Part shown: in pieces, positions 3,779 through 22,187 of the stretch
Position numbering within the stretch: the first letter of the stretch is position 1
How the letters are laid out: each line of letters opens with the position of its first letter
Origin: a virus
Length of the DNA: 25,112 bases
Virus record (IMG/VR): IMGVR_UViG_3300032893_001950
Strand: one strand, 5' to 3'
The notes under the pieces: generated by a model
Databases searched by the model: none
The model's input: only the letters and a program-made list of their open reading frames with translations
Told to the model about the DNA's origin: nothing
Translations under genes and position numbers: made by a program

Positions 3779-4215
3779 TGGAACCTATCGCGTTTTTACT
3801 CCTAGGGCTGTTTGGCGTACCAATGTCGATGTTCATGTTGTACCGTCGGCATACTGGGTTCAACATAAAGTGTCCGGTCTGCAAGCGTAGTCGCAGATTC
3901 CTGAAGTCCAGGGCGCAGTGGCGTGTGGTCAACGAGTTCCCGGACCTGCTCAATAACTACACATACTTCTGCGGCGGCGAAGGTTTCGCAAACAAGAGTC
4001 ACTACAAGCCAGAAATCGATTCCGATGTGGGGTGCGGGGCAGACCTCATTGGAGAGTATCTAACCCACCCATACGTGGTGGGCGTCCACAACGAAGTAAT
4101 TGCCCTACAGGAACGAACCGACTCTGCGCGAGTCACACGAACGGAGGTGGATAAGGCCCATCATGAGCTTGCAGAAGAAGACAACAGAGTAGTCAAGATG
4201 CGGGAGCATTCGTAA
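3778..4215 (+). CDS. membrane-anchored protein with CPVC motif; hypothetical
   Basis: GTG start immediately after the upstream TAG. N-terminal hydrophobic helix IAFLLLGLFGVPMSMFML followed by CPVCKRSRR. Lower-GC island. Confidence 0.5.
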   Translation: MEPIAFLLLGLFGVPMSMFMLYRRHTGFNIKCPVCKRSRRFLKSRAQWRVVNEFPDLLNNYTYFCGGEGFANKSHYKPEIDSDVGCGADLIGEYLTHPYVVGVHNEVIALQERTDSARVTRTEVDKAHHELAEEDNRVVKMREHS

Positions 4216-4488
4216 ATGTTTGATCCCTCGGCCGACAAGCTTGAACTGATGGTCTGCGGTGGTCTTCAGTATGCATGTGAGGTTGAAGGCTACGCGGATG
4301 CTCCAGCCATAATTGCGCTCTGGAACAAAGTAGAGTTAAATGAGCGCACGCCTGAAGTTCTGGCGACGCTGATTGTAGATTTCACGTATCGCAAGCATTG
4401 GATGCCGCTCAACACCACAGCTAAAGATTGGAATTATGAGGGGCGGATCAAGCACATTCTGGACAACGTAATCCCAGCCCTGGCCTAG
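4216..4488 (+). CDS. hypothetical protein
   Basis: ATG directly after the upstream TAA. 90-aa ORF. Confidence 0.5.
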   Translation: MFDPSADKLELMVCGGLQYACEVEGYADAPAIIALWNKVELNERTPEVLATLIVDFTYRKHWMPLNTTAKDWNYEGRIKHILDNVIPALA

Positions 4489-4530
4489 GGGTAGGCCAGT
4501 CGGTTGGCGTGTTTGTGGGGAGTGGGGCGG

Positions 4531-5754
4531 ATGTTTATCGACAATAGCTTGGCGAACCAATTGGTTCGCCAAGCCCAGACGCGCAAAGATGCAGGTTCGA
4601 TTCAGCGGCTCATGGAACAGATAGTCGAGGTCGAGAATTATCGACAGCACGACATCAAGAACCAGGGCTACATCGGTCGCGTGTTCTTCCAAGAACAGGA
4701 GCGGCTGCCAGCTAGTGTGGACATGACTGACATTGTGGCAGTATTCTGGGAACAGGTGATGAAGGATCTGCCCAGGGCCGCCATGGAGGGTGAGGTCGTA
4801 TCCGTCCGCAAGATCAACGAAATCCAACATGATGGCATTGAATATGTCGCGTCAAAGACTAAGGATGGTGAAGTTTACGTAGACCGCAAGACGAAGATGA
4901 ACCCAGTTTATTGGTTGAGGCGCCAAGGTTATATGGCAGTCCGGAATTTCATCAACGACCACTACCGGGACAACTGGAATCAGTCTTGCGACGACTGTGG
5001 GCACGTTGGGCCTTCGGCACAATCCACGGAGGTTGTAACTCCCTGCCACCAGTGTAACTCCAAGGACTCGGTCAAGGTCACGCTCCGGAAGCGGACGGTC
5101 CAGCGAGGCTCTAACAATTCACACCGTAAGTGTTCAGCCTGTGGCACCCTGCGCCCACGCCAGTTCACGCGTTCTTGTCGGAAGTGCGGGTCGTCAAACG
5201 TCAGGGTGGACTACAGATTCGATGGCGAACTTAAGGAGGACATCTTTAGCTTACCTGATGGCCTCCATAACATGCGGCCGGACGACATTCTGGTCAAGGG
5301 TGAGGTGAATCGGGAGCTTGAGCAACTGCTTAAGGATATCGAGGATTCGTTCCCCAAGAACACCAAGGATAACATTGGTGACACTCAGGTCAGACGTATC
5401 TTTCGCATCCTCATCTATCCCGAAGCGTCCATGGAGATGTGTGGTCAATGCAAATTCAAAGCCGGCATGGTGTGTGCAGAGGGTTGCCGGCGCGACTACT
5501 GCAACCACGATCGCAAGGTAAACCCCTCGAAGTCATGCGGAGCAGATAGCTTCCAACTCGACAAGTGCATCAACTACAGCAAGAAGATTGGCGAGTACAT
5601 GGGGTTTACCGGCGCACTGGCCAATCGTCGGGTACAGAAAATCCGCCTCTACGTCGAGCAGTTCCTCCGCAACAACCTGGACAGGTACGGCATCTCCCAG
5701 CAGCTCCTAAGGAAACTGGAAACCGCGAAACGAAGGAAGAAAGGGTTGGCGTAA
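4531..5754 (+). CDS. hypothetical protein with four CxxC-type Cys clusters (putative multiple Zn ribbons). The N- and C-terminal regions weakly resemble sigma-factor regions 2 and 4.
   Basis: ATG 4531 with GGGGAG SD; the track's TTG at 4504 is less likely. Motifs CDDCGH...CHQC, CSACG...CRKCG and CGQC...CAEGC...CNHD. C-terminus ALANRRVQKIRLYVEQFLR is HTH-like. Confidence 0.6.
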   Translation: MFIDNSLANQLVRQAQTRKDAGSIQRLMEQIVEVENYRQHDIKNQGYIGRVFFQEQERLPASVDMTDIVAVFWEQVMKDLPRAAMEGEVVSVRKINEIQHDGIEYVASKTKDGEVYVDRKTKMNPVYWLRRQGYMAVRNFINDHYRDNWNQSCDDCGHVGPSAQSTEVVTPCHQCNSKDSVKVTLRKRTVQRGSNNSHRKCSACGTLRPRQFTRSCRKCGSSNVRVDYRFDGELKEDIFSLPDGLHNMRPDDILVKGEVNRELEQLLKDIEDSFPKNTKDNIGDTQVRRIFRILIYPEASMEMCGQCKFKAGMVCAEGCRRDYCNHDRKVNPSKSCGADSFQLDKCINYSKKIGEYMGFTGALANRRVQKIRLYVEQFLRNNLDRYGISQQLLRKLETAKRRKKGLA

Positions 5755-6205: not shown

Positions 6206-6376
6206 ATGCACTGTGCCTGCCCTGGTTGTCGGTATGTACAATACATGAACAACAAGTGCGCACATCCCAAGACGTATGATCGCGACCTTACTTATCCTGA
6301 GAGACAAACCAGCCACTTTCCGGACAAGACACCAAAATGGTGTCCTATCAGCAAAAATAAATCTAACGGAGTGTAG
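6206..6376 (+). CDS. possible small Cys-rich protein (MHCACPGCRY...KCAH...WCPIS), 56 aa; its 3' end overlaps the tRNA-Pro gene
   Basis: ATG 6206 with AAGGTG 11 nt upstream; ORF ends TAG 6374-6376, 10 nt into the tRNA. Below the track's size cutoff, so weak. Confidence 0.25.
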   Translation: MHCACPGCRYVQYMNNKCAHPKTYDRDLTYPERQTSHFPDKTPKWCPISKNKSNGV

Positions 6377-6440
6377 CGCAGCCTGGTAGCGCACTTGCCT
6401 TGGGCGCAAGGGGCCGGAGGTTCGAATCCTCTCACTCCGA
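6367..6440 (+). tRNA. tRNA-Pro (anticodon UGG)
   Basis: Manual fold. Acceptor CGGAGTG/CACTCCG (7 bp, C1:G72, A73 discriminator as in bacterial tRNA-Pro). D-stem GCGC/GCGC. Anticodon stem CTTGC/GCAAG with loop CTTGGGC (anticodon TGG at 6401-6403, G37). T-arm GGAGG-TTCGAAT-CCTCT. CCA not encoded. Confidence 0.8.
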
Positions 6441-6485: not shown

Positions 6486-6770
6486 ATGAGCGGCAAGCCA
6501 TACCCAGAGGGTGTAGAGCGGGTGGCCGTGCTCCTACGCAAGGAGCACCAGCTCCGCGTCGAGCTGGGTGCCCTCAAGCCACATGTCGAGCGCTACCACA
6601 AAGCTCAGGAGGAGTACGGCAAGATTTCCACAGAGGTCGCCAAGCTCCTGGAGAGCATGGATCTGGAAGGACAGGGCAATTACGGGTTCGGTGGCCGGAT
6701 GGGGTGGTTTCTCCGCACCATGCGTGAGCTTATTCTAAAGGACCTGGCCAAGCCACAGGAGGGTCCATGA
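6486..6770 (+). CDS. hypothetical protein
   Basis: ATG with AGGGAG SD. 94-aa helical-looking ORF. Stop overlaps the next ATG (ATGA). Confidence 0.6.
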   Translation: MSGKPYPEGVERVAVLLRKEHQLRVELGALKPHVERYHKAQEEYGKISTEVAKLLESMDLEGQGNYGFGGRMGWFLRTMRELILKDLAKPQEGP

Positions 6771-7189
6771 AGCGCCTATTTGTTTTCACTGCTGTCCTCG
6801 GAATCGCTGCGGTTGGGGCCATCGCTTACGGAGAGCGGATCGCCTCGGTCGAGACCAAGGGCATCTTCGTAAAGGACAACATCTTCGTCGATGCCTTCGA
6901 CGACCCAGACCTCAAGGGTGTGGTCTGTTACATCACCTACTACAGCAAGGCGATGTCAATGGTGGACCCCAGCGACACGAGTATCGCCTGCGTGAAGACG
7001 GGTCCAGTTTCAGGAGAGCCGGGCAACAAGGCGGGCGTCTTTTCACAACAGAAGTCGCCCATCTTCAAGTCCACGGTTGTGGACCGGTTCTATGACGCCA
7101 ACCGCAAGGTAGTTCTCTACCTTGCATATACGACAGACACGGGCGGGAAGAACGCTGCCCACGCCATGTCGGCGGTTCCACTGCAGTAA
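6767..7189 (+). CDS. secreted/periplasmic protein, CreA-family-like (tentative)
   Basis: Signal peptide MKRLFVFTAVLGIAAVGAIAYG. The segment FVDAFDDPDLKGVVCYITYY...DPSDTSIACVKTGPV resembles the CreA/DUF family as recalled from memory. Confidence 0.6.
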   Translation: MKRLFVFTAVLGIAAVGAIAYGERIASVETKGIFVKDNIFVDAFDDPDLKGVVCYITYYSKAMSMVDPSDTSIACVKTGPVSGEPGNKAGVFSQQKSPIFKSTVVDRFYDANRKVVLYLAYTTDTGGKNAAHAMSAVPLQ

Positions 7190-7869
7190 GTAGTAGTAGT
7201 CTGTTCTTTGACATTATGATGGTTGCGGCGTGGCGATATGACACGCGGGAGATGGGGATTGGTATGGACCTTTCAGTGAAAGGCGCCCAAAATCCCGAGT
7301 CCGACATAAGCAGGGCCGGCTTCTCTTGAAGTGCTGCCAGGAGCCCTTGCGCAGTGAAATTTGTGGAAGCACACCAGTGCCTATATGGTTTGACACCTAA
7401 CACAAATCGAGTCGGACCAAAGCCAATTAGCCGGGGAAGGACCGGCCAACCATCAACTTTTAATAGTCTCAAGCCGAAGGGAGGTTGGCCTAGAAGCAGC
7501 CATCCTTTAAAGAGTGCCAAGTGGAGGAAAGTAGGGTAGCGCACCTGAAATCAAGAGTCCCACCTACGATGAAGCGGGTTAGCAGCCCGTGGAGTTTAAA
7601 GTCCTGACGACGTGGGCGTAGAACCACAGGGAGTGCAAAATCCTAGACGACGATCTGGTTGCGGGTTTTCCTAGCACGGCGACGTGCGAAGTTCCTACCA
7701 ATGACTGGATCTATCGTGACTTCGGAAAGTAGCAACGGCCAGTTTCGCCCGCACTGTACGAGAGGAACTGCGGGTCTGACTTGGGGCCTGTGTCAAGGAC
7801 ACGTGAAGCCCTGGGAACGACTGGTACGGCCCTCAGAGGCTTTGGCGTAATAGCACACCTTCAGCTTGG

Positions 7870-7908
7870 GGCCGCTCCCCGCACGTATTGGGGGAGCGGT
7901 TCTTTTTG
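7870..7908 (+). terminator. Rho-independent terminator
   Basis: GC-rich stem CCGCTCCCC / GGGGAGCGG (9 bp), 10-nt loop, then TCTTTTTGT. Confidence 0.7.
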
Positions 7909-7927
7909 TGGTAAAGTAGTAACGTAA

Positions 7928-8297
7928 GGGCCCGAAAAGGTTTCGACGTGGGACCTGAACGTAGTAGTGCGAGCCTAGGCGGTTACGGGCCTAGTCAAAT
8001 CCGTGGCAAACCAACAAACGCCAACGACAACGTTGACGTCGGCTTCCCCGCGCTCCGCGCGGCCTAAGCCACTCCAGGGTGAGACCGCCTCAATACACCC
8101 TGGGGCCAATAAAGAGGCTGTAACGCGGTGATGTTGTCCTGCTGCGCCGCGCCAAAGTAGTTGTAGGAAGACACGGGCTAGGTACCGAGCGGAGAGTTCC
8201 AACTCCAAACCGGTGCCGAAGAAAGAAATTGGAACTACGCTCGTAGTGCTGCTACCGGATGGACTTACGGACCCCGGTTCGATTCCGGGCGGGTCCA
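7928..8297 (+). ncRNA. ssrA: tmRNA (ssrA), one-piece; tag reading frame 8020..8067 encodes (A)NDNVDVGFPALRAA, stop TAA
   Basis: 5' end GGGCCCG-AAAA-GGTTTCGACGTGGG matches the tmRNA 5' consensus (GGGGCUG...GGAUUCGACGGG). 3' end GGAC-CCCGG-TTCGATT-CCGGG-CGGGTCC-A matches the T-arm plus acceptor. The acceptor pairs 7928-7934 with 8290-8296 and includes a G3:U70 wobble (Ala identity element). Resume codon GCC. The tag begins ANDN and ends AA, like proteobacterial tags. A hairpin CCAGGGTG...CACCCTGG follows the stop. Confidence 0.8.
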
Positions 8298-8314
8298 TTA
8301 TTTTGGAGTAAAAT

Positions 8315-17500: not shown

Positions 17501-17794
17501 AAGACCAACGGTGTGAATGGGCACAAGAACGGCCACTCCGAGCAGCTTCAGCTGCCCATCGAGATGCCGCACCCTGCGGTAATCGAGTCAGTGATGACAA
17601 AGGCCCCGGAAGTGGTGTCCTTCTCGTCCACCGCGCACTTCCAGGCGTTCTCTACGGATCTGCTGGCGAAAGCGGCCTCGCCTTGGGCCAGTAGCAAGAA
17701 GAAGCTGGAGCAGTGCCCGAATTGTTCCAGCAAGAACATTGATCATGGGGCTGGCTGCGCCACCTGTGCAGATTGTGGTGGTAGTTTCTGCTGA
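14510..17794 (+). CDS. nrdJ: class II (adenosylcobalamin-dependent) ribonucleoside-triphosphate/diphosphate reductase NrdJ, interrupted by an intein
   Basis: SNGEPGLLF motif and the active-site NPC|GE motif split by the intein (ATNP-C...N-CGEQ). C-terminal Zn ribbon CPNCSS...CATCADCGG typical of monomeric class II RNR. Mature length about 729 aa after excision. Confidence 0.9.
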   Translation: MAEMQLTPNAMNVLKKQKYLHPKDDGGTESVQEMWSRVSVAVGAAEDIFVGESNSANRYTFEKEAYYYQSEGLFVANSPTMVNAGKKRGQLAACFVLPIEDDTHSIMQASHNQVMVQTSGGGTGFSGARLRCRNSLVGTTGKVSGGAMSVLRMLNANSQYFITQGAARNGANMWVQPCWHFDVLEFIDIKRYELRNLHHKLEAGIHLTDDERKFLEGGTDIKEFNISVAATDEFMELATNGDYTTENWPLKDPKDGRVVEWTNAASMLDRIIFRAWSNGEPGLLFIDAANRQNPTPQIGTLEATNPCLTGDTFIATDKGLLQLHDIVEHKLKVKVYGSDGQLQDIAKYVDSGVQKIFQIKTRSGAELYATSYHRWPTKDGEKQTHELQVGDKLSVFVNAKLEQNLNTEEYDAGLLLGWLIGDGYLSHMESKSRSAGIIVGKDDFDYIPLIQNLIEKATGQKASEHKRDEFSTVQLLSQRIWKWAVNDMGVIPHKAGDKEVPQCVMEGSQSMQRGFLKGLFSADGHVVHGNDSRVQVRLTSKSKALMDGVRILLTQVGVVSKVMDRSRPPREDLFKHVNKDGDTVWYGSDGVAYEVHVSGRSYLEQFARAVGFTQQTKTIKLTAAIESLTGRQMVDDSDPIISIEPAGVEHTYCLNVTPTHSMVANGINTLNCGEQWLLGDESCTLGHAVLSRFCREFLSDKKMPTTLAEVLPFIDLDKLRDCFKFITRFLDNVVQVNYYPVESIAKMHRDGNRKIGVGVLGWGDMLAKLHIRYGSELSLILAAHIGKLWQEATDEASIGLAKERGSFGNYKGSAVELQFPEGMRNACRRTVAPTGSTGIIVNASTGIEPIFGLVLTRNQAGSIMHEVHSFFQEVLDREVSKSYHEQIFNYFSVMKTLAGISKDKTFAGIVPEWIEQVFVQASDVSPTEHVAMQAAWQQHTDNSISKTINMPSSASENDVRTAYVQAWKSGCKGITVYRDGSRNNQVLTVGDKTNGVKKTNGVNGHKNGHSEQLQLPIEMPHPAVIESVMTKAPEVVSFSSTAHFQAFSTDLLAKAASPWASSKKKLEQCPNCSSKNIDHGAGCATCADCGGSFC
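15428..16522 (+). mobile_element. intein (365 aa) with LAGLIDADG homing-endonuclease domain inside nrdJ
   Basis: Starts CLTGDTFIA (block A) directly after ATNP. LAGLIDADG motifs LLGWLIGDGYL and KGLFSADGHV. Ends HSMVANGINTLN followed by the C-extein Cys of CGEQ. In frame; the insertion is 1095 nt. Confidence 0.8.
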
Positions 17795-18139: not shown

Positions 18140-19546
18140 ATGGCCAAGGGCAAGAGCGTCACGGTAGTGGTGGGGATGCAGTATGGATCAGAGGCCAAGG
18201 GCAAACTGATCTCAGTGATCGCTCACGAGTACCAGATGCTCGTCCGCACGGGCTCAGTAAACGCGGCCCACACGGTCTACTTCGAAGGGAAGGCCTACCC
18301 CTGGCACCAGCTCCCGGCCGGCACCCTTCACATGATGAAGCGGAACCCGGAGTCCATCATCGTCCTGGGTGCTGGGTCACAGCTTGACCTGCACTACCTG
18401 GAGCGGGAGGTCAAGTGGCTCCAGGAGCATGGAGTCCTCTTCTTTGAGGGAACGAAGGTTCCCCGCCTGCTCATCGACAACATGGCCACGGTGATCGACG
18501 AGTTCGACACCTTCGCAGAGAACGGCTACGCCAATGTCTGCGGGCCGCAGTGGTACAAGCCCACTACCTGCCAGTACCACAACGGCGACAAGGGACCGGA
18601 CGGGGCGACCAAGGCGAAGGGCGGCTGTACCGGGTGCTCGCTCTACCCCGCCGACTCCATGCACCGGACCCTGGGTTCCACCACCCACGGGTCGGGCATG
18701 AACATGATCCGCAAGCTGGCTCGTCGCGGTAACATCGTGATGGGCCGCGAGAACCTGACCTTCGAGCAGTTCGTGGAGGGCATGGCCATCGACCAGATGT
18801 TGAAGGACGACATTGGGCCTGCCATCAAGGGAGTGATGGCCCAGGCCTACGAAATCTATGGCAAGCGTATCGCTCTCAAGGCGCCGCCGGTCAAGCTCGT
18901 GTCAGACATCAAGGACACGGAGATCGCGGGCGTGAAGCTCGGTGCCTTCCTGGCCGACACCGTGGACGCCATCAACACCTACATCGATGCCGGCAAGAAG
19001 GTAATGCTGGAGGGTACGCAGGGCGCGATGCTCTCTGTCCACCACGGCACCTGGCCCAAGACCACCAGCCGCGACACCAACGCCTCCAACTGGTGCATGG
19101 AGGCCGGCGTCGCCCCGACTGCTGTGGAGAAGGTCATCGGCGTGGCCCGTACCTTCCCGATCCGGGTGGCCGGCGATTCTGGGCCCACCAGCGGGAAGGA
19201 AATCACCTGGAAGGACGTCTCCGAGTTCGCGGGCGTGCCCTACACCCACAACGATGATCCCACCCAGATCAAGGGCCTCATCGAGATCACCACCGCCACC
19301 AAGCGGGTGCGCCGGGTCTTCGAGTTCGGGGACGAGGACTTCCTCAAGGCGATGCAACTGAATCGCCCCGACGAGCTGATGCTCACCTTCGTGGACTACC
19401 TGGGCATCGAGAATGCTGGCAAGCGTGACTGGAACGAACTCACGCCCAAGGCCCGTGAGTGGGTCATCAAGAAGGAAGCCTCCCTTGGTGTCCACTTCAG
19501 GTACCTGTCCACCGGTCCTGGCGACCAAGAACTCATCGTCCGCTAA
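18140..19546 (+). CDS. adenylosuccinate synthetase family enzyme (PurA/PurZ-like), divergent
   Basis: Alignable end to end with PurA. P-loop [14 protein letters not shown] matches VVVLGTQWGDEGKGK. Also NAAH (His41 region), GSTTHGSG (GTTGRGIGP), [19 protein letters not shown] ([20 protein letters not shown]), [14 protein letters not shown] (TTGRRRRTGWLD) and LSTGPGDQE (ISTGPDRTE). Deviations: Asp13 replaced by Ser, TKLD replaced by TFVD, and a Cys4 insertion (C-x9-C-x17-C-x2-C). Confidence 0.85.
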
Positions 19547-19806
19547 TGGGAATCGAAATCATGAACAACTTCGGCTGGGCAGTCGAGCGACTCAAGGATG
19601 GGTGTGCCGTCGCCCGTAAGGGCTGGAACGGCAAGGGCATGTGGATCGCCCTACAGCGCCCAGATGCCAACTCCAAGATGACCCTGCCATATACCTACAT
19701 GAGCACCGTGACCGGAGACCTGGTCCCGTGGCTAGCCTCTCAGACCGACATCCTCGCTGAGGACTGGGAGCTGGTTAAGGGACCCACACCCTACTCAGGT
19801 AAGTAG
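19546..19806 (+). CDS. DUF2829-like small protein (possible Tad2-like nucleotide sponge); alternative start ATG 19561
   Basis: TAATG overlap with the purA-like stop. [34 protein letters not shown]...[19 protein letters not shown] matches the recalled DUF2829 signature (GWNGKG, pW..sq.D.LA.DWE). Confidence 0.6.
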
Positions 19807-19974: not shown

Positions 19975-20901
19975 ATGGGATTCCTAAGCGAAACCGGCAA
20001 CTCCATCTACCTCGCACTGAAGGAAACGATCCAGACCGGGCGCCCGCTGGCGAAGAAGCCTCAGTCGGTCTGGACCCACCAGATCCCGGAAGTCTTCACC
20101 ATGGACGACCGTCTGCCCGGGACGAAGCTAATCCTTCGCCCCTACGGGACGGCGCCCTGCATCGCCACCGCTCGCAACAAGAGCGCTTGCTGGCACTGCA
20201 ACAACACCGACCCTCTATGGCACCAGCTCGCCCCCGATCAGCAGGTCGCCACGGGCGGCAAGTACAAGGGTCAGCGTGTGGACTTCAGCAAGAAGGTGGT
20301 CCACCTCCTGCCCATGTACAACCACACCGAGGGCAAGACCCAGATCCTGAAGAGCGGCAACCAGGTCTTCAAGGAGATGGAGAAGTGGGACGAGGCCGGG
20401 AACGACATCCGTGGCTGCGACTGGGACCTCTGGAAGAAGGGGACCTTCCGTAACACGGAGAACTTCTCGACCCGCAAGGACTCGACCCAGACCCTCCCCC
20501 TGGACCTCGCCGCCTACGAGGAAGAGGCCAAGGCCATCCTCCGGCAGGCCCTGGATGACCTCAAGCCGCTCAGCGCCGAAGAGTACGCCAAGCATGCTCA
20601 CGGCGTGAGCAAGGAAGAGGCCATCGAGGCGGCGAAGAAGAAGGCCGCTTCCGCGACGACCGCTGCTCCGGCGATGGGCCTCCCCGCCGCCCCGTCCTCG
20701 TCCGGTGCGCTCCCGCCCGCTCCTGCCATGGGCTCGATGCCGGCGCTCCCGCCTCCGCCGCCTCCCCCGGTGGCAGCTGTGGACAACCGGCTCATGCAGC
20801 CGCTGAAGTTCTCGGACGACAAGCACTACGTCCTGCTCGCCACCAACCAGTGGAAGCTGGTTGCGGAGGCGAAGCGCGAAGGGTACGTAGGCCTGCCGTA
20901 G
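19975..20901 (+). CDS. putative ssDNA-binding protein, T4 gp32-like (tentative), with C-terminal Ala/Pro-rich linker (PPPPPPP) and small C-terminal domain
   Basis: C-x9-C-x2-C (CIATARNKSACWHC) has the same spacing as the gp32 Zn site (C77-x9-C87-x2-C90). KLILRPYG resembles gp32 AVIRFLPS. EGKTQILKSGNQVFKEMEKW resembles gp32 EGKVFKYRFGKKIWDKI. CA-rich leader with AAGGA SD. Confidence 0.55.
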   Translation: MGFLSETGNSIYLALKETIQTGRPLAKKPQSVWTHQIPEVFTMDDRLPGTKLILRPYGTAPCIATARNKSACWHCNNTDPLWHQLAPDQQVATGGKYKGQRVDFSKKVVHLLPMYNHTEGKTQILKSGNQVFKEMEKWDEAGNDIRGCDWDLWKKGTFRNTENFSTRKDSTQTLPLDLAAYEEEAKAILRQALDDLKPLSAEEYAKHAHGVSKEEAIEAAKKKAASATTAAPAMGLPAAPSSSGALPPAPAMGSMPALPPPPPPPVAAVDNRLMQPLKFSDDKHYVLLATNQWKLVAEAKREGYVGLP

Positions 20902-20924
20902 TTCAGCCGTTATAACCATCCACA

Positions 20925-20960
20925 GCGCCGGGAGTGTTCTGCTCCCGGCGCATTTACTTG
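20925..20960 (+). terminator. Rho-independent terminator (GCGCCGGGAG-tgttctg-CTCCCGGCGC then ATTTACTTGG)
   Basis: Perfect 10-bp GC stem, 7-nt loop, T-rich tail, 24 nt after the stop at 20901. Confidence 0.55.
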
Positions 20961-20975
20961 GGGAGTACCCAAATC

Positions 20976-22187
20976 ATGAAGACTTGGTCGATTGACATCA
21001 CCTTCAAGGGCACCGACGAGGCTGTCCATGATGCGGTGAAGAAGCTCGCCAACGAGTTCGCAACCAAGACCCTGTCCACCCACGTTCTCATCAGTGCCGG
21101 CGTCGGCAGCCAGCAGGAATGGGAAGGTAAGGTCCCGGCCCCAGGGCCGAAGGTCATACCTGAGCCGATCATCGAGAATGTGGACAACACGCCAGTGGTC
21201 GAGGCCGAGGTGGTTCCACCGAGCGAGGTGAAGAAGCTCAGCAGCTCCACCGCCCAGGCCCAATTCGAGGTGGTGGAGGTCAAGGCCGAGCCAGTCGCGC
21301 CACCGGTCCAGGCGGCACCGCCACCGCCGCCACCGCCGCCACCGCCCGTCCCGGCGTCTCCGCCGGTTCCGGACGCGCCCGCCGCTGCCGCCCCGCCACC
21401 GCCGCCACCCGCGCCCGTGCAGAACACGGCGCCGGCTCCTGTCGAAGTGTCGGCCACCCCGTCTGGTGGCATCGAGGCAGACAAGGCCATCGTGATGTCG
21501 GAAGGCAAGTACAAGGGCAAGACCCTCGGATGGGTCGCGGAGAATGACTCAAAGTACTTCACCTTCATGAAGTCCTACACCAAGGACGAGGCCATCAAGG
21601 CGGCCACCGATCGCATCAAGCTCGCCATGAAGGCTGGCGCCATCACCACTTCGGCCCCGACCGAGGCCCCGCCTCCGCCGCCTCCCCCAGTGGCTGGCGC
21701 GGCTGTGCCTCCACCCCCGCCCGCTCCCGTCACTCCTGAAGTGGCCGCACCCCCGCCTCCTCCACCCCCGCCTCCTGCCCCGGCGGCTGCAGCGGCTCCC
21801 CCTCCGCCGCCTCCTGCTCCTGCTGCGGTGGCCGCGCCTCCTCCCCCTCCGCCGCCCGCCCCAGCCCCTGCGGCCGAGCCCACCCCACCTGCCACGCCGG
21901 CTCCTGTCGCCGCTGCACCGGTCGATTCCAAGGCTCAAGTCGTCGCGGTTCAGGACCTGTCCAACTACATCAATTCGCAGCCCGAGTTCAAGGGTGCGAA
22001 CATGGTGAAGAACCTCATCCCGCTGCTTCGCGGTGTGATGAACGGGACCCTCGACTACACGGACAAGGACATCCCGACGCTTCAGAAGATTCGAGCGGTC
22101 GTGGACGCGTGGCTCACCACTGCCCGTAATAGGGCTCCGTCGGCCCCTCCGCCGCCCCCTCCGATGCCCACCGCGCCGACTGCCTAA
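20976..22187 (+). CDS. proline-rich multidomain protein with six polyproline (PPPPPPP-type) / Ala-Pro linker tracts
   Basis: ATG 20976 with GGGGAG SD; the track start 20934 lies inside the terminator hairpin. Three apparently folded segments separated by APPPPPPPPPPPVPASPPVP, APPPPPPAP, EAPPPPPPPVAGAAVPPPPPAP, AAPPPPPPPPPAPAAAAAPPPPPPAPAAVAAPPPPPPPAP and a C-terminal SAPPPPPPMP tract. Confidence 0.7.
   Translation: MKTWSIDITFKGTDEAVHDAVKKLANEFATKTLSTHVLISAGVGSQQEWEGKVPAPGPKVIPEPIIENVDNTPVVEAEVVPPSEVKKLSSSTAQAQFEVVEVKAEPVAPPVQAAPPPPPPPPPPVPASPPVPDAPAAAAPPPPPPAPVQNTAPAPVEVSATPSGGIEADKAIVMSEGKYKGKTLGWVAENDSKYFTFMKSYTKDEAIKAATDRIKLAMKAGAITTSAPTEAPPPPPPPVAGAAVPPPPPAPVTPEVAAPPPPPPPPPAPAAAAAPPPPPPAPAAVAAPPPPPPPAPAPAAEPTPPATPAPVAAAPVDSKAQVVAVQDLSNYINSQPEFKGANMVKNLIPLLRGVMNGTLDYTDKDIPTLQKIRAVVDAWLTTARNRAPSAPPPPPPMPTAPTA

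Follow-up and report, generated by a model that had tools for sequence, protein, structure and literature searches.

A complete one-piece tmRNA gene in an uncultured large phage and a clade of related phage tmRNAs with their own tag family

Complete genes for transfer-messenger RNA (tmRNA; gene ssrA) are carried by a minority of bacteriophages: a 2021 survey found them in 402 of 18,146 phage genomes (2.3%; PMC9004378), and huge phages carry tmRNA together with SmpB (PMC7162821). The described examples, from mycobacteriophage Bxz1 and its relatives, Bacillus phage G, the huge phages and OM43 phage Melnitz, are complete ssrA genes beside tRNA genes in large, apparently lytic phages with no integrase nearby, and ribosome rescue is their presumed role; that trans-translation would keep ribosomes available is the standard inference for such genes. 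A different kind of tmRNA-derived sequence on mobile elements is the 3' fragment of ssrA that lies beside an integrase at the attachment (att) sites of prophages and islands. Here we describe a tmRNA gene at positions 7928–8297 (+) of a 25,112-nt stretch of viral DNA, IMG/VR record IMGVR_UViG_3300032893_001950, the whole of which is referred to below as the window. An initial annotation, made from the letters of the sequence, had called a mobile element with its own ssrA alongside its own tRNA-Pro uncommon; this is fair, but at about 2.3% of phage genomes the arrangement was already known. The gene is very probably a functional one-piece tmRNA of an uncultured large double-stranded DNA phage, placed among nucleotide-metabolism and replication genes. 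It belongs to a previously undescribed phage tmRNA clade with its own tag family, although genes of this kind are already known. Unlike the att fragments it is complete, with neither integrase nor repeat found; unlike the tmRNA of Melnitz, which is two-piece, it is one-piece; and it differs from the known phage tmRNAs in forming its own clade, whose members often adjoin a gene for a major vault protein (MVP). Its tag is unrelated to those of Bxz1 (ATDTDATVTDAEIEAFFAEEAAALV) and phage G (AKLNITNNELQVA), both of which are listed in the tag table of ARAGORN.

Run on the whole window, ARAGORN called a one-piece tmRNA of 370 nt, and the Rfam tmRNA model RF00023 matched positions 7928–8300 over its full length (model 1–374) at 135.8 bits (E=2e-53), the gathering score of this model being 47 bits. 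The gene-finding program and the covariance model thus agree on a tmRNA at 7928–8297 (+), and the RNA is both identified and intact. A two-piece (permuted) arrangement was also considered and rejected, as the permuted model scored only 27.5 bits, below 47.

Every helix of the RNA was checked base by base; all of the following features lie on the plus strand. The acceptor stem (GGGCCCG/CGGGTCC, 7928–7934 with 8290–8296) pairs at all seven positions and contains G3:U70 (7930:8294), with the discriminator A at 8297. TTA stands directly 3' of the discriminator, so that CCA is not encoded. The adjoining D-loop-like segment of the tRNA-like domain, AAAAGGTTTCGA (7935–7946, from the ARAGORN annotation of that domain), contains a GG..TCGA that is invariant across the relatives described below, and the domain is completed by the T arm (CCCGG-TTCGATT-CCGGG, 8273–8289, with 8273–8277 paired to 8285–8289; pairs verified). 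The P2 helix joins 7947–7974 to 8239–8269, again with verified pairs, its 5' strands being P2a at 7947–7954, P2b at 7961–7967 and P2d at 7969–7974. The first pseudoknot, PK1 (7975–8007; S1 7975–7980/7989–7994, S2 7982–7988/8001–8007), ends 12 nt short of GCC at 8020, the resume codon that opens the tag reading frame called by ARAGORN (8020–8067): 15 codons for ANDNVDVGFPALRAA, closed by TAA at 8065–8067. This stop is enclosed by the P5 hairpin (8041–8070), in which 11 of 11 pairs were verified (8041–8045/8066–8070 and 8048–8053/8057–8062). Three further pseudoknots follow, PK2 (8072–8118; S1 8072–8081/8096–8105, S2 8087–8091/8114–8118), PK3 (8124–8173; S1 8124–8130/8145–8151, S2 8132–8142/8163–8173 with 10 of 11 pairs) and PK4 (8181–8236; S1 8181–8187/8211–8217 and 8191–8194/8203–8206, S2 8195–8202/8229–8236). 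The hairpin part of PK2 is aligned by the Rfam model, PK3 is the weakest stretch of that alignment, and all three can be drawn with second stems of 5–11 bp in the window sequence alone, the relatives being too divergent here for covariation.

The initial annotation had described this gene by hand as a tmRNA in one piece with tRNA-like 5' and 3' ends, a G3:U70 pair, pseudoknot-capable sequence before the resume codon, a 15-codon tag ending in TAA, a hairpin straddling the stop and no encoded CCA; each of these details is confirmed, to an extent far beyond chance. It had also raised the possibility of a 3' fragment left by an attP-type tRNA remnant, and this is excluded: the 5' acceptor strand is present, the model match is full-length, and integrase and repeat were not seen. 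The architecture is that of the bacterial one-piece tmRNA (RF00023), especially of the Myxococcota type, which has the same G3:U70 acceptor, T arm, P2, PK1, tag starting with Ala and ending in Ala-Ala and stop hairpin, and also the PK2–PK4 that can be drawn in the window sequence. The Myxococcaceae tag, ANDNVELALAA, has a prefix, ANDNV(E/D), identical to that of the phage clade, but the window tag is phage-encoded and exceeds it by four residues: a ..G/A-x-P-x-L segment is inserted, and position -3 is Arg in place of Leu.

Around the gene, a possible extended -10 promoter, TGGTAAAGT, was read by eye at 7909–7917 (+), 10 nt before the mature 5' end, and may drive the tmRNA; a scan with the sigma-70 consensus found no site near the gene. 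Directly upstream, a hairpin with a T run that resembles an intrinsic terminator (7871–7907, +; the hairpin is present in the minimum-free-energy fold) is predicted to end an upstream RNA gene and to bound the tmRNA transcription unit.

A 103,236-bp metagenomic contig (ENA ERZ27256510 k141_1884565) contains the window at 100% identity, and nearly all of its genes lie on the plus strand. On both sides of the tmRNA the recognisable genes are typical of large lytic phages. Those flanking it include an ATP-dependent DNA ligase (phrog_114), RecA/UvsX and a PDDEXK nuclease, together with the ribonucleotide reductase, PurZ-like and Tad2-like genes described below, and further downstream in the contig are genes for a DEAD helicase, a primase-helicase, a nucleoside deoxyribosyltransferase and a dUTPase/dCTP deaminase. 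The RecA-like protein is less than 40% identical to anything in cultured phages. A tRNA-Pro(TGG) gene (6367–6440, +; ARAGORN), 1.5 kb upstream of the tmRNA, is 89% identical to the tRNA-Pro of a related contig (L097, below). No integrase was seen among the genes of the contig part that was read, and no second copy of the tmRNA 3' end or att-like direct repeat was found, this 3' end occurring once. Given the phage-type flanks and the absence of integrase and repeat, the tmRNA lies inside a phage genome and not at a prophage junction or in an attP remnant. Searches of 50,697 deposited phage records gave no nucleotide match to the tmRNA (distant mode) or to the whole window (near mode), and an exact look-up of the ligase product returned no match.

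The tmRNA is followed, 1.4 kb downstream, by an MVP homologue (9724–12285, +; 853 aa) with MVP shoulder and Vault_3 domains, in a stretch that is locally rich in G+C (64–68%). The first report of MVPs in viruses is a preprint of 2023 (bioRxiv 10.1101/2023.11.10.566534). The closest homologues of this protein (59–63% identity) are on phage-like contigs, and the next tier (56–60%) bears the metagenome-assembled genome (MAG) names Kofleriaceae, Myxococcales and Deltaproteobacteria. Single-protein searches of IMG/VR with the MVP-like protein and with a CreA-like protein of the window gave no match; only an alignment-based search worked, and with an MVP profile it identified 229 viral stretches that encode relatives, many on contigs longer than 100 kb.

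Through an adjacent MVP gene or through the tag pattern, 13 related tmRNAs were found on phage-like contigs; those of them that were scanned with Rfam scored 110–134 bits. The tmRNA stands upstream of the MVP gene in four of the closest contigs, and tags were read as ANDNVEVAPMLQAA in L003, ANDNVELAPALLAA in L004, ANDNVEAGPTLMAA in L006 and ANDNVESAPMLRAA in L007. Among 80 fetched IMG/VR loci of the 229, two have a tmRNA within 10 kb of the MVP gene, on contigs of 187 and 189 kb. The tag of L011 (gene at 7456–7797), re-read by hand from the conserved resume context, is ANDNVDFPQYALRAA, and L010 (7592–7959) is a more distant member with a tag end of ...FRAAA; for both of these tmRNAs the resume codon given by ARAGORN was wrong. 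A degenerate tag pattern in which position -3 was left free matched a single contig (L090; CAYILR010000008.1, tag ANDNVEAAPALMAA) in 185,579 species-representative genomes of GTDB. This bacterial scan used the 14-residue tag form, which is thus found in none of the GTDB bacterial species representatives save one phage-like contig; as a nucleotide pattern, the 15-residue form is GCCAAYGAYAAYGTNGA-N10-CCNNNNYTNNNNGCNGCNTRR. Eight metagenomic contigs contain the same kind of tag pattern: L091 and L092 (both ANDNVESAPMLRAA, as in L007), L093 (ANDNVEAVPALLAA), L094 (ANDNVELSAPALRAA), L095 (ANDNVEQSVPALRAA), L097 and L096 (both ANDNVELSAPLLRAA, the gene of L096 being cut off at the contig end) and L098, a short fragment with a pattern match only. 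In L091 (6302–6692) and L092 (943–1333) ARAGORN also gave overlapping 'permuted tmRNA*' calls that are probably artefacts. Degenerate tag patterns had no match in IMG/VR. The related contigs carry tRNA arrays (23 tRNAs in L097), a Thg1-like enzyme, a UvsX-like recombinase, ArdC and mostly ORFans.

Covariation was assessed on an alignment of 12 family members, limited to their conserved 5' and 3' portions, with the window structure projected onto it. Standard pairs were made in 80.7% of cells in these 12 sequences, compared with 31–48% when partners were slid by 1–3 columns and 64.8% after column shuffling, where none of 500 shuffles reached the observed value; changes on both sides of a pair were seen in 116 cells, compared with 17–40 in the slid controls. 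The acceptor stem was 100% paired with compensatory changes at three pairs, and G3:U70 was kept in 12 of 12 sequences. The T arm was likewise 100% paired, with both-side changes at four of its five pairs, while P2a, P2b and P2d were paired at 89%, 73% and 94%, respectively. In PK1, S1 was 89% paired and five of its six pairs changed on both sides; support for S2 is weaker (44–76% paired) because the alignment is poor there. The inner stem of P5 was 76% paired in the relatives. At the level of the encoded peptide, the tag head GCC AAC GAC AAY GTY GA is near-invariant across the clade, and the tail Pro-x-Leu-x-Ala-Ala is kept with changing codons: CGC, CGG and CGA all serve for Arg, the codons of the two Ala differ between members, and TAA, TGA and TAG all occur as stops. 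Because the helices covary and the tag pattern survives codon changes, both RNA fold and peptide are under selection across the phage clade, and their joint maintenance speaks against a decaying pick-up.

The tags of the clade take the form ANDNV[ED]..P.L[R/L/M/Q]AA. At position -3, seven of the 12 aligned tmRNAs have Arg, while Leu and Met occur in two each and Gln in one; with L096 as the eighth Arg, the RAA ending occurs in 8 of 14 tmRNAs (the window and its 13 relatives). Members that were found via MVP, and so independently of the tag pattern, have R, R, R, Q, L and M at this position. The initial annotation had suggested that an LRAA ending could matter for ClpXP/SspB recognition or may simply reflect the host lineage. 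It is a lineage trait, but the lineage is a phage tmRNA clade and not an identified host, as the 8 of 14 RAA endings with their differing Arg codons show. For comparison we used the built-in tag table of ARAGORN (~1,270 tags), by which the window tag was not recognised. LAA ends 869 of its entries and RAA only two (Parachlamydia/Protochlamydia), while many others end in VAA, MAA, AAA, IAA, FAA, YAA, KAA or QAA, KAA being the norm in Campylobacter, Helicobacter and Francisella. By this sequence comparison, Arg at -3 is a recurrent, conserved state of the phage tmRNA clade at a generally tolerant position.

Published work agrees with this tolerance. Recognition by ClpX depends above all on the terminal Ala-Ala-COO-, and mutation of the antepenultimate Leu raises the Michaelis constant (KM) only modestly (PMC7652416). 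A 5-mer degron screen found Pro, His, Gly and small polar residues, but not Arg, depleted at that position (PMC10862746). The window tag keeps the terminal Ala-Ala and Leu at -4, and ...ALRAA is, by analogy, most likely still a degron of the ClpXP type; a quantitative effect of Arg at -3 on degradation is possible.

In a working model of the gene, the tmRNA would be transcribed alone, between the upstream terminator and its own T-arm/U-run; host RNase P and enzymes of 3' processing would trim it, and the host CCA-adding enzyme would supply CCA. Host alanyl-tRNA synthetase (AlaRS) would charge it with alanine through G3:U70. Together with host SmpB and EF-Tu, it could then enter ribosomes stalled on truncated mRNAs during infection; translation would resume at GCC 8020, append ANDNVDVGFPALRAA and free the ribosome at TAA, and the terminal Ala-Ala-COO- would mark the product for degradation of the ClpXP type. 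The likely benefit to the phage would be ribosome recycling when infection, or RNase-based host defence, breaks many mRNAs. Since SmpB was not present in the ~35 kb of contig read, function would depend on compatibility with host SmpB.

No direct host link was found, and from three indirect lines of sequence evidence we consider a Myxococcota host about evenly poised between right and wrong. The closest named bacterial MVP homologues are those of Kofleriaceae and Myxococcales. The tags of Myxococcus, Corallococcus and Stigmatella share the prefix ANDNVE with the window tag, and in the ARAGORN table those of Haliangium and Sorangium also begin with ANDN. Lastly, the gene is one-piece, whereas most other ANDN... 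tags are from Alphaproteobacteria, the tmRNAs of most of which are two-piece (PMC9004378). An alphaproteobacterial or Rickettsia origin was examined, the closest listed tag being that of R. prowazekii (ANDNRYVGVPALAAA, 11 of 15 residues identical), and was set aside, the window gene and its relatives being one-piece.

A variant of the rescue model would have Arg at -3 and the longer, Pro-containing tag re-target or slow the degradation of tagged proteins, through weaker binding to ClpX or an adaptor or by favouring another protease, so that ribosomes are rescued without the usual proteolytic outcome in the host. The great rarity of RAA among bacterial tags, its retention through synonymous Arg codons in more than half of the clade and the influence of the antepenultimate residue on KM would all fit such a role. 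The sister phage tmRNAs, however, have L, M or Q at the same place, many bacteria have V, M, A, I, F, Y, K or Q there, with KAA tags standard in whole genera, and the retained Ala-Ala end and Leu at -4 argue in the same direction. As the Arg codon sits in the P5 stem, RNA pairing may in addition contribute to its conservation. We therefore regard re-targeting as improbable, if the most credible of the three alternatives.

Two other explanations concern the gene itself. On the first, it would be a host ssrA that was acquired when excision or recombination went astray and is now non-functional and decaying, which is disfavoured and very unlikely: ssrA fragments are common in phages that use this gene for integration (PMC9004378), and expression of the window gene is a prediction, but the RF00023 match is full-length and high-scoring, all helices are intact, and the diverged phage copies show compensatory changes and synonymous tag codons. 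A marginally slimmer chance is given to the window being bacterial chromosome, with a host ssrA beside an integrated element, or to the gene being an attP/attB site. ssrA is a classic integration hotspot and L090 was binned in a 'Bacteriovoracaceae' MAG; against this, same-strand phage-type genes lie on both sides of the tmRNA without integrase or direct repeat of its 3' end, and the related contigs are phage-like too, with their tRNA arrays, Thg1, UvsX, ArdC and many ORFans. L090 itself (102 kb, 60% G+C) looks like a mis-binned phage contig from its G+C content, its gene content and its lack of housekeeping genes; two of its genes, at 3989–4927 and 4967–5527, code for an ArdC/M78-peptidase protein and for a 186-aa protein that has the C-terminal domain of ribosomal L7/L12. 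A functional phage tmRNA remains the reading that we favour, and several points weigh against it. Its expression is inferred from sequence; PK2–PK4 are supported by a single sequence, the middle of the family alignment being too divergent; neither an SmpB gene nor structural genes were seen in the part of the contig that was read (~35 kb in the case of SmpB); the label 'phage' derives from gene content and IMG/VR relatives; and a bacterial lineage with a 15-residue ...LRAA tag may exist, the scan having covered the 14-residue form.

The 740-nt gap upstream of the tmRNA, which is poor in open reading frames, holds a structured, unannotated RNA at 7468–7907 (+). In its sequence, this RNA mimics the GTPase-associated centre of 23S rRNA, and we regard it as more unusual than the tmRNA. 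The Rfam bacterial large-subunit rRNA model gave a local match at 7478–7546 (25–30 bits), within which GGAGGUUGGCCUAGAAGCAGCCAUCCUUUAAAGAGUG (7482–7506) is near-identical to helix 43 of that centre, the L11/thiostrepton site. The loop motif of helix 44, GGCGUAAUAGCAC, occurs at 7844–7856, 330 nt beyond the helix-43 block, and a closing stem (7470–7480/7858–7868, 10 of 11 pairs) encloses both blocks and is followed by the terminator-like element. The 330-nt insert between the two blocks includes a hairpin (7748–7774, CCCGCA-CUGUACGAGAGGAAC-UGCGGG) whose loop is an exact copy of the 11-nt sarcin-ricin loop (SRL) core, GUACGAGAGGA.

A scan of IMG/VR with the helix-43 motif identified 118 stretches, of which 80 were fetched (L100–L179) for the counts that follow. 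None of the 80 is a real 23S gene, only ~21–38 nt of each resembling 23S, and in 73 the helix-44 block lies 31–324 nt downstream. Over 57 distinct cores, pairing in the closing stem reaches 74.7% (34–43% in slid controls), with 4–6 pair types at most positions, and helix 43 covaries and keeps the U-U/U-C mismatch of rRNA. In one other member, L125, a long homologous insert carries an SRL-like hairpin, AGUACGGGAGGAA, and a covarying stem. tRNA or tmRNA genes occur within 3 kb at 54 of the 80 loci, and all 314 of 314 neighbouring RNA genes, the window's two included, share their strand with the mimic element. Complete, unannotated intergenic copies are present in Cronobacter phage GAP32 (L218, ~1484–1752) and Aeromonas phage 4_4572 (L219, ~1485–1793), and the helix-43 block has further matches, unannotated or labelled 'hypothetical protein', in Pectobacterium phage CBB, Serratia phage BF, several Erwinia phages, Xanthomonas phage XbC2, Pseudomonas phages Astolliot and Milchi and Paenibacillus phage Pd_22F. 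No family in Rfam 15 covers the element, and a full-text literature search found no description of it, which is not proof that it is undescribed. Thermodynamic z-scores were not significant; the case for the RNA is made by its sequence identity to rRNA together with covariation.

As a conjecture, the mimic RNA could plausibly act as a decoy or sponge and sequester a molecule that binds the factor-binding site of the ribosome, candidates being uL11 or stalk proteins, a translational GTPase, RelA, or a toxin or antibiotic that targets ribosomes. The element also stands right before a tmRNA in an unrelated phage contig (L124, 8522–9133; tag ANTNFALAA, Rfam 80.6 bits), and in L179 and L116 tmRNA calls lie within the same tRNA arrays as the mimic. 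The order seen in L124 is compatible with a functional link and is equally explained by shared residence in tRNA arrays. One could go further and see the tmRNA as one module of a phage 'translation-takeover' RNA island with the tRNA-Pro and the mimic RNA, its ...P.LRAA tag adapted to alter handling by host protease or adaptor and not a product of neutral drift; we think this improbable, slightly more so than re-targeting by the tag.

Several other genes of the window were recorded. A PurZ-like adenylosuccinate synthetase (18140–19546, +; phrog_1211, of the 'aminoadenylosuccinate synthetase' type) shares ~32% identity with the PurZ proteins of phages of Arthrobacter, Gordonia and Streptomyces, and because this gene is accompanied by the downstream dUTPase/dCTP-deaminase-like and nucleoside deoxyribosyltransferase genes, the phage DNA may carry 2-aminoadenine in place of adenine. 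The large subunit of a class I ribonucleotide reductase (14510–17794, +; 1094 aa) is interrupted by an intein that bears a LAGLIDADG homing-endonuclease domain. A Tad2-like (Thoeris anti-defence 2) domain is encoded at 19459–19806 (+; 90.7 bits), where the called gene is of 81 aa (~19561–19806). The CreA-family protein (6767–7189, +) has an N-terminal hydrophobic, signal-like segment and homologues in Vibrio, Rhizobium, Aeromonas and Xanthomonas jumbo phages; queried against a large protein database it returned only itself, giving no second line of host evidence. Two open reading frames of 308 and 417 aa without family match occupy 19975–22187 (+; 64–69% G+C), in which eight imperfect copies of a 27-nt CCGCC-rich repeat (20748–22168) suggest Pro/Ala/Gly-rich low-complexity proteins.

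To the question of why phages carry tmRNA the locus adds a clade that is well defined and may come from phages of Myxococcota. The tmRNA itself is ordinary, and interest in its tag variant is modest; of greater value is the rRNA-mimic RNA beside it, which occurs in cultivable jumbo phages and is thus directly testable. Within the clade, tag divergence is patterned, with a fixed ANDNV(E/D) head, Pro-x-Leu, a variable -3 residue that is mostly Arg, and a fixed Ala-Ala. These tags thus form a natural allelic series for the positions recognised by ClpXP and adaptors and for the tuning of phage versus host tags.

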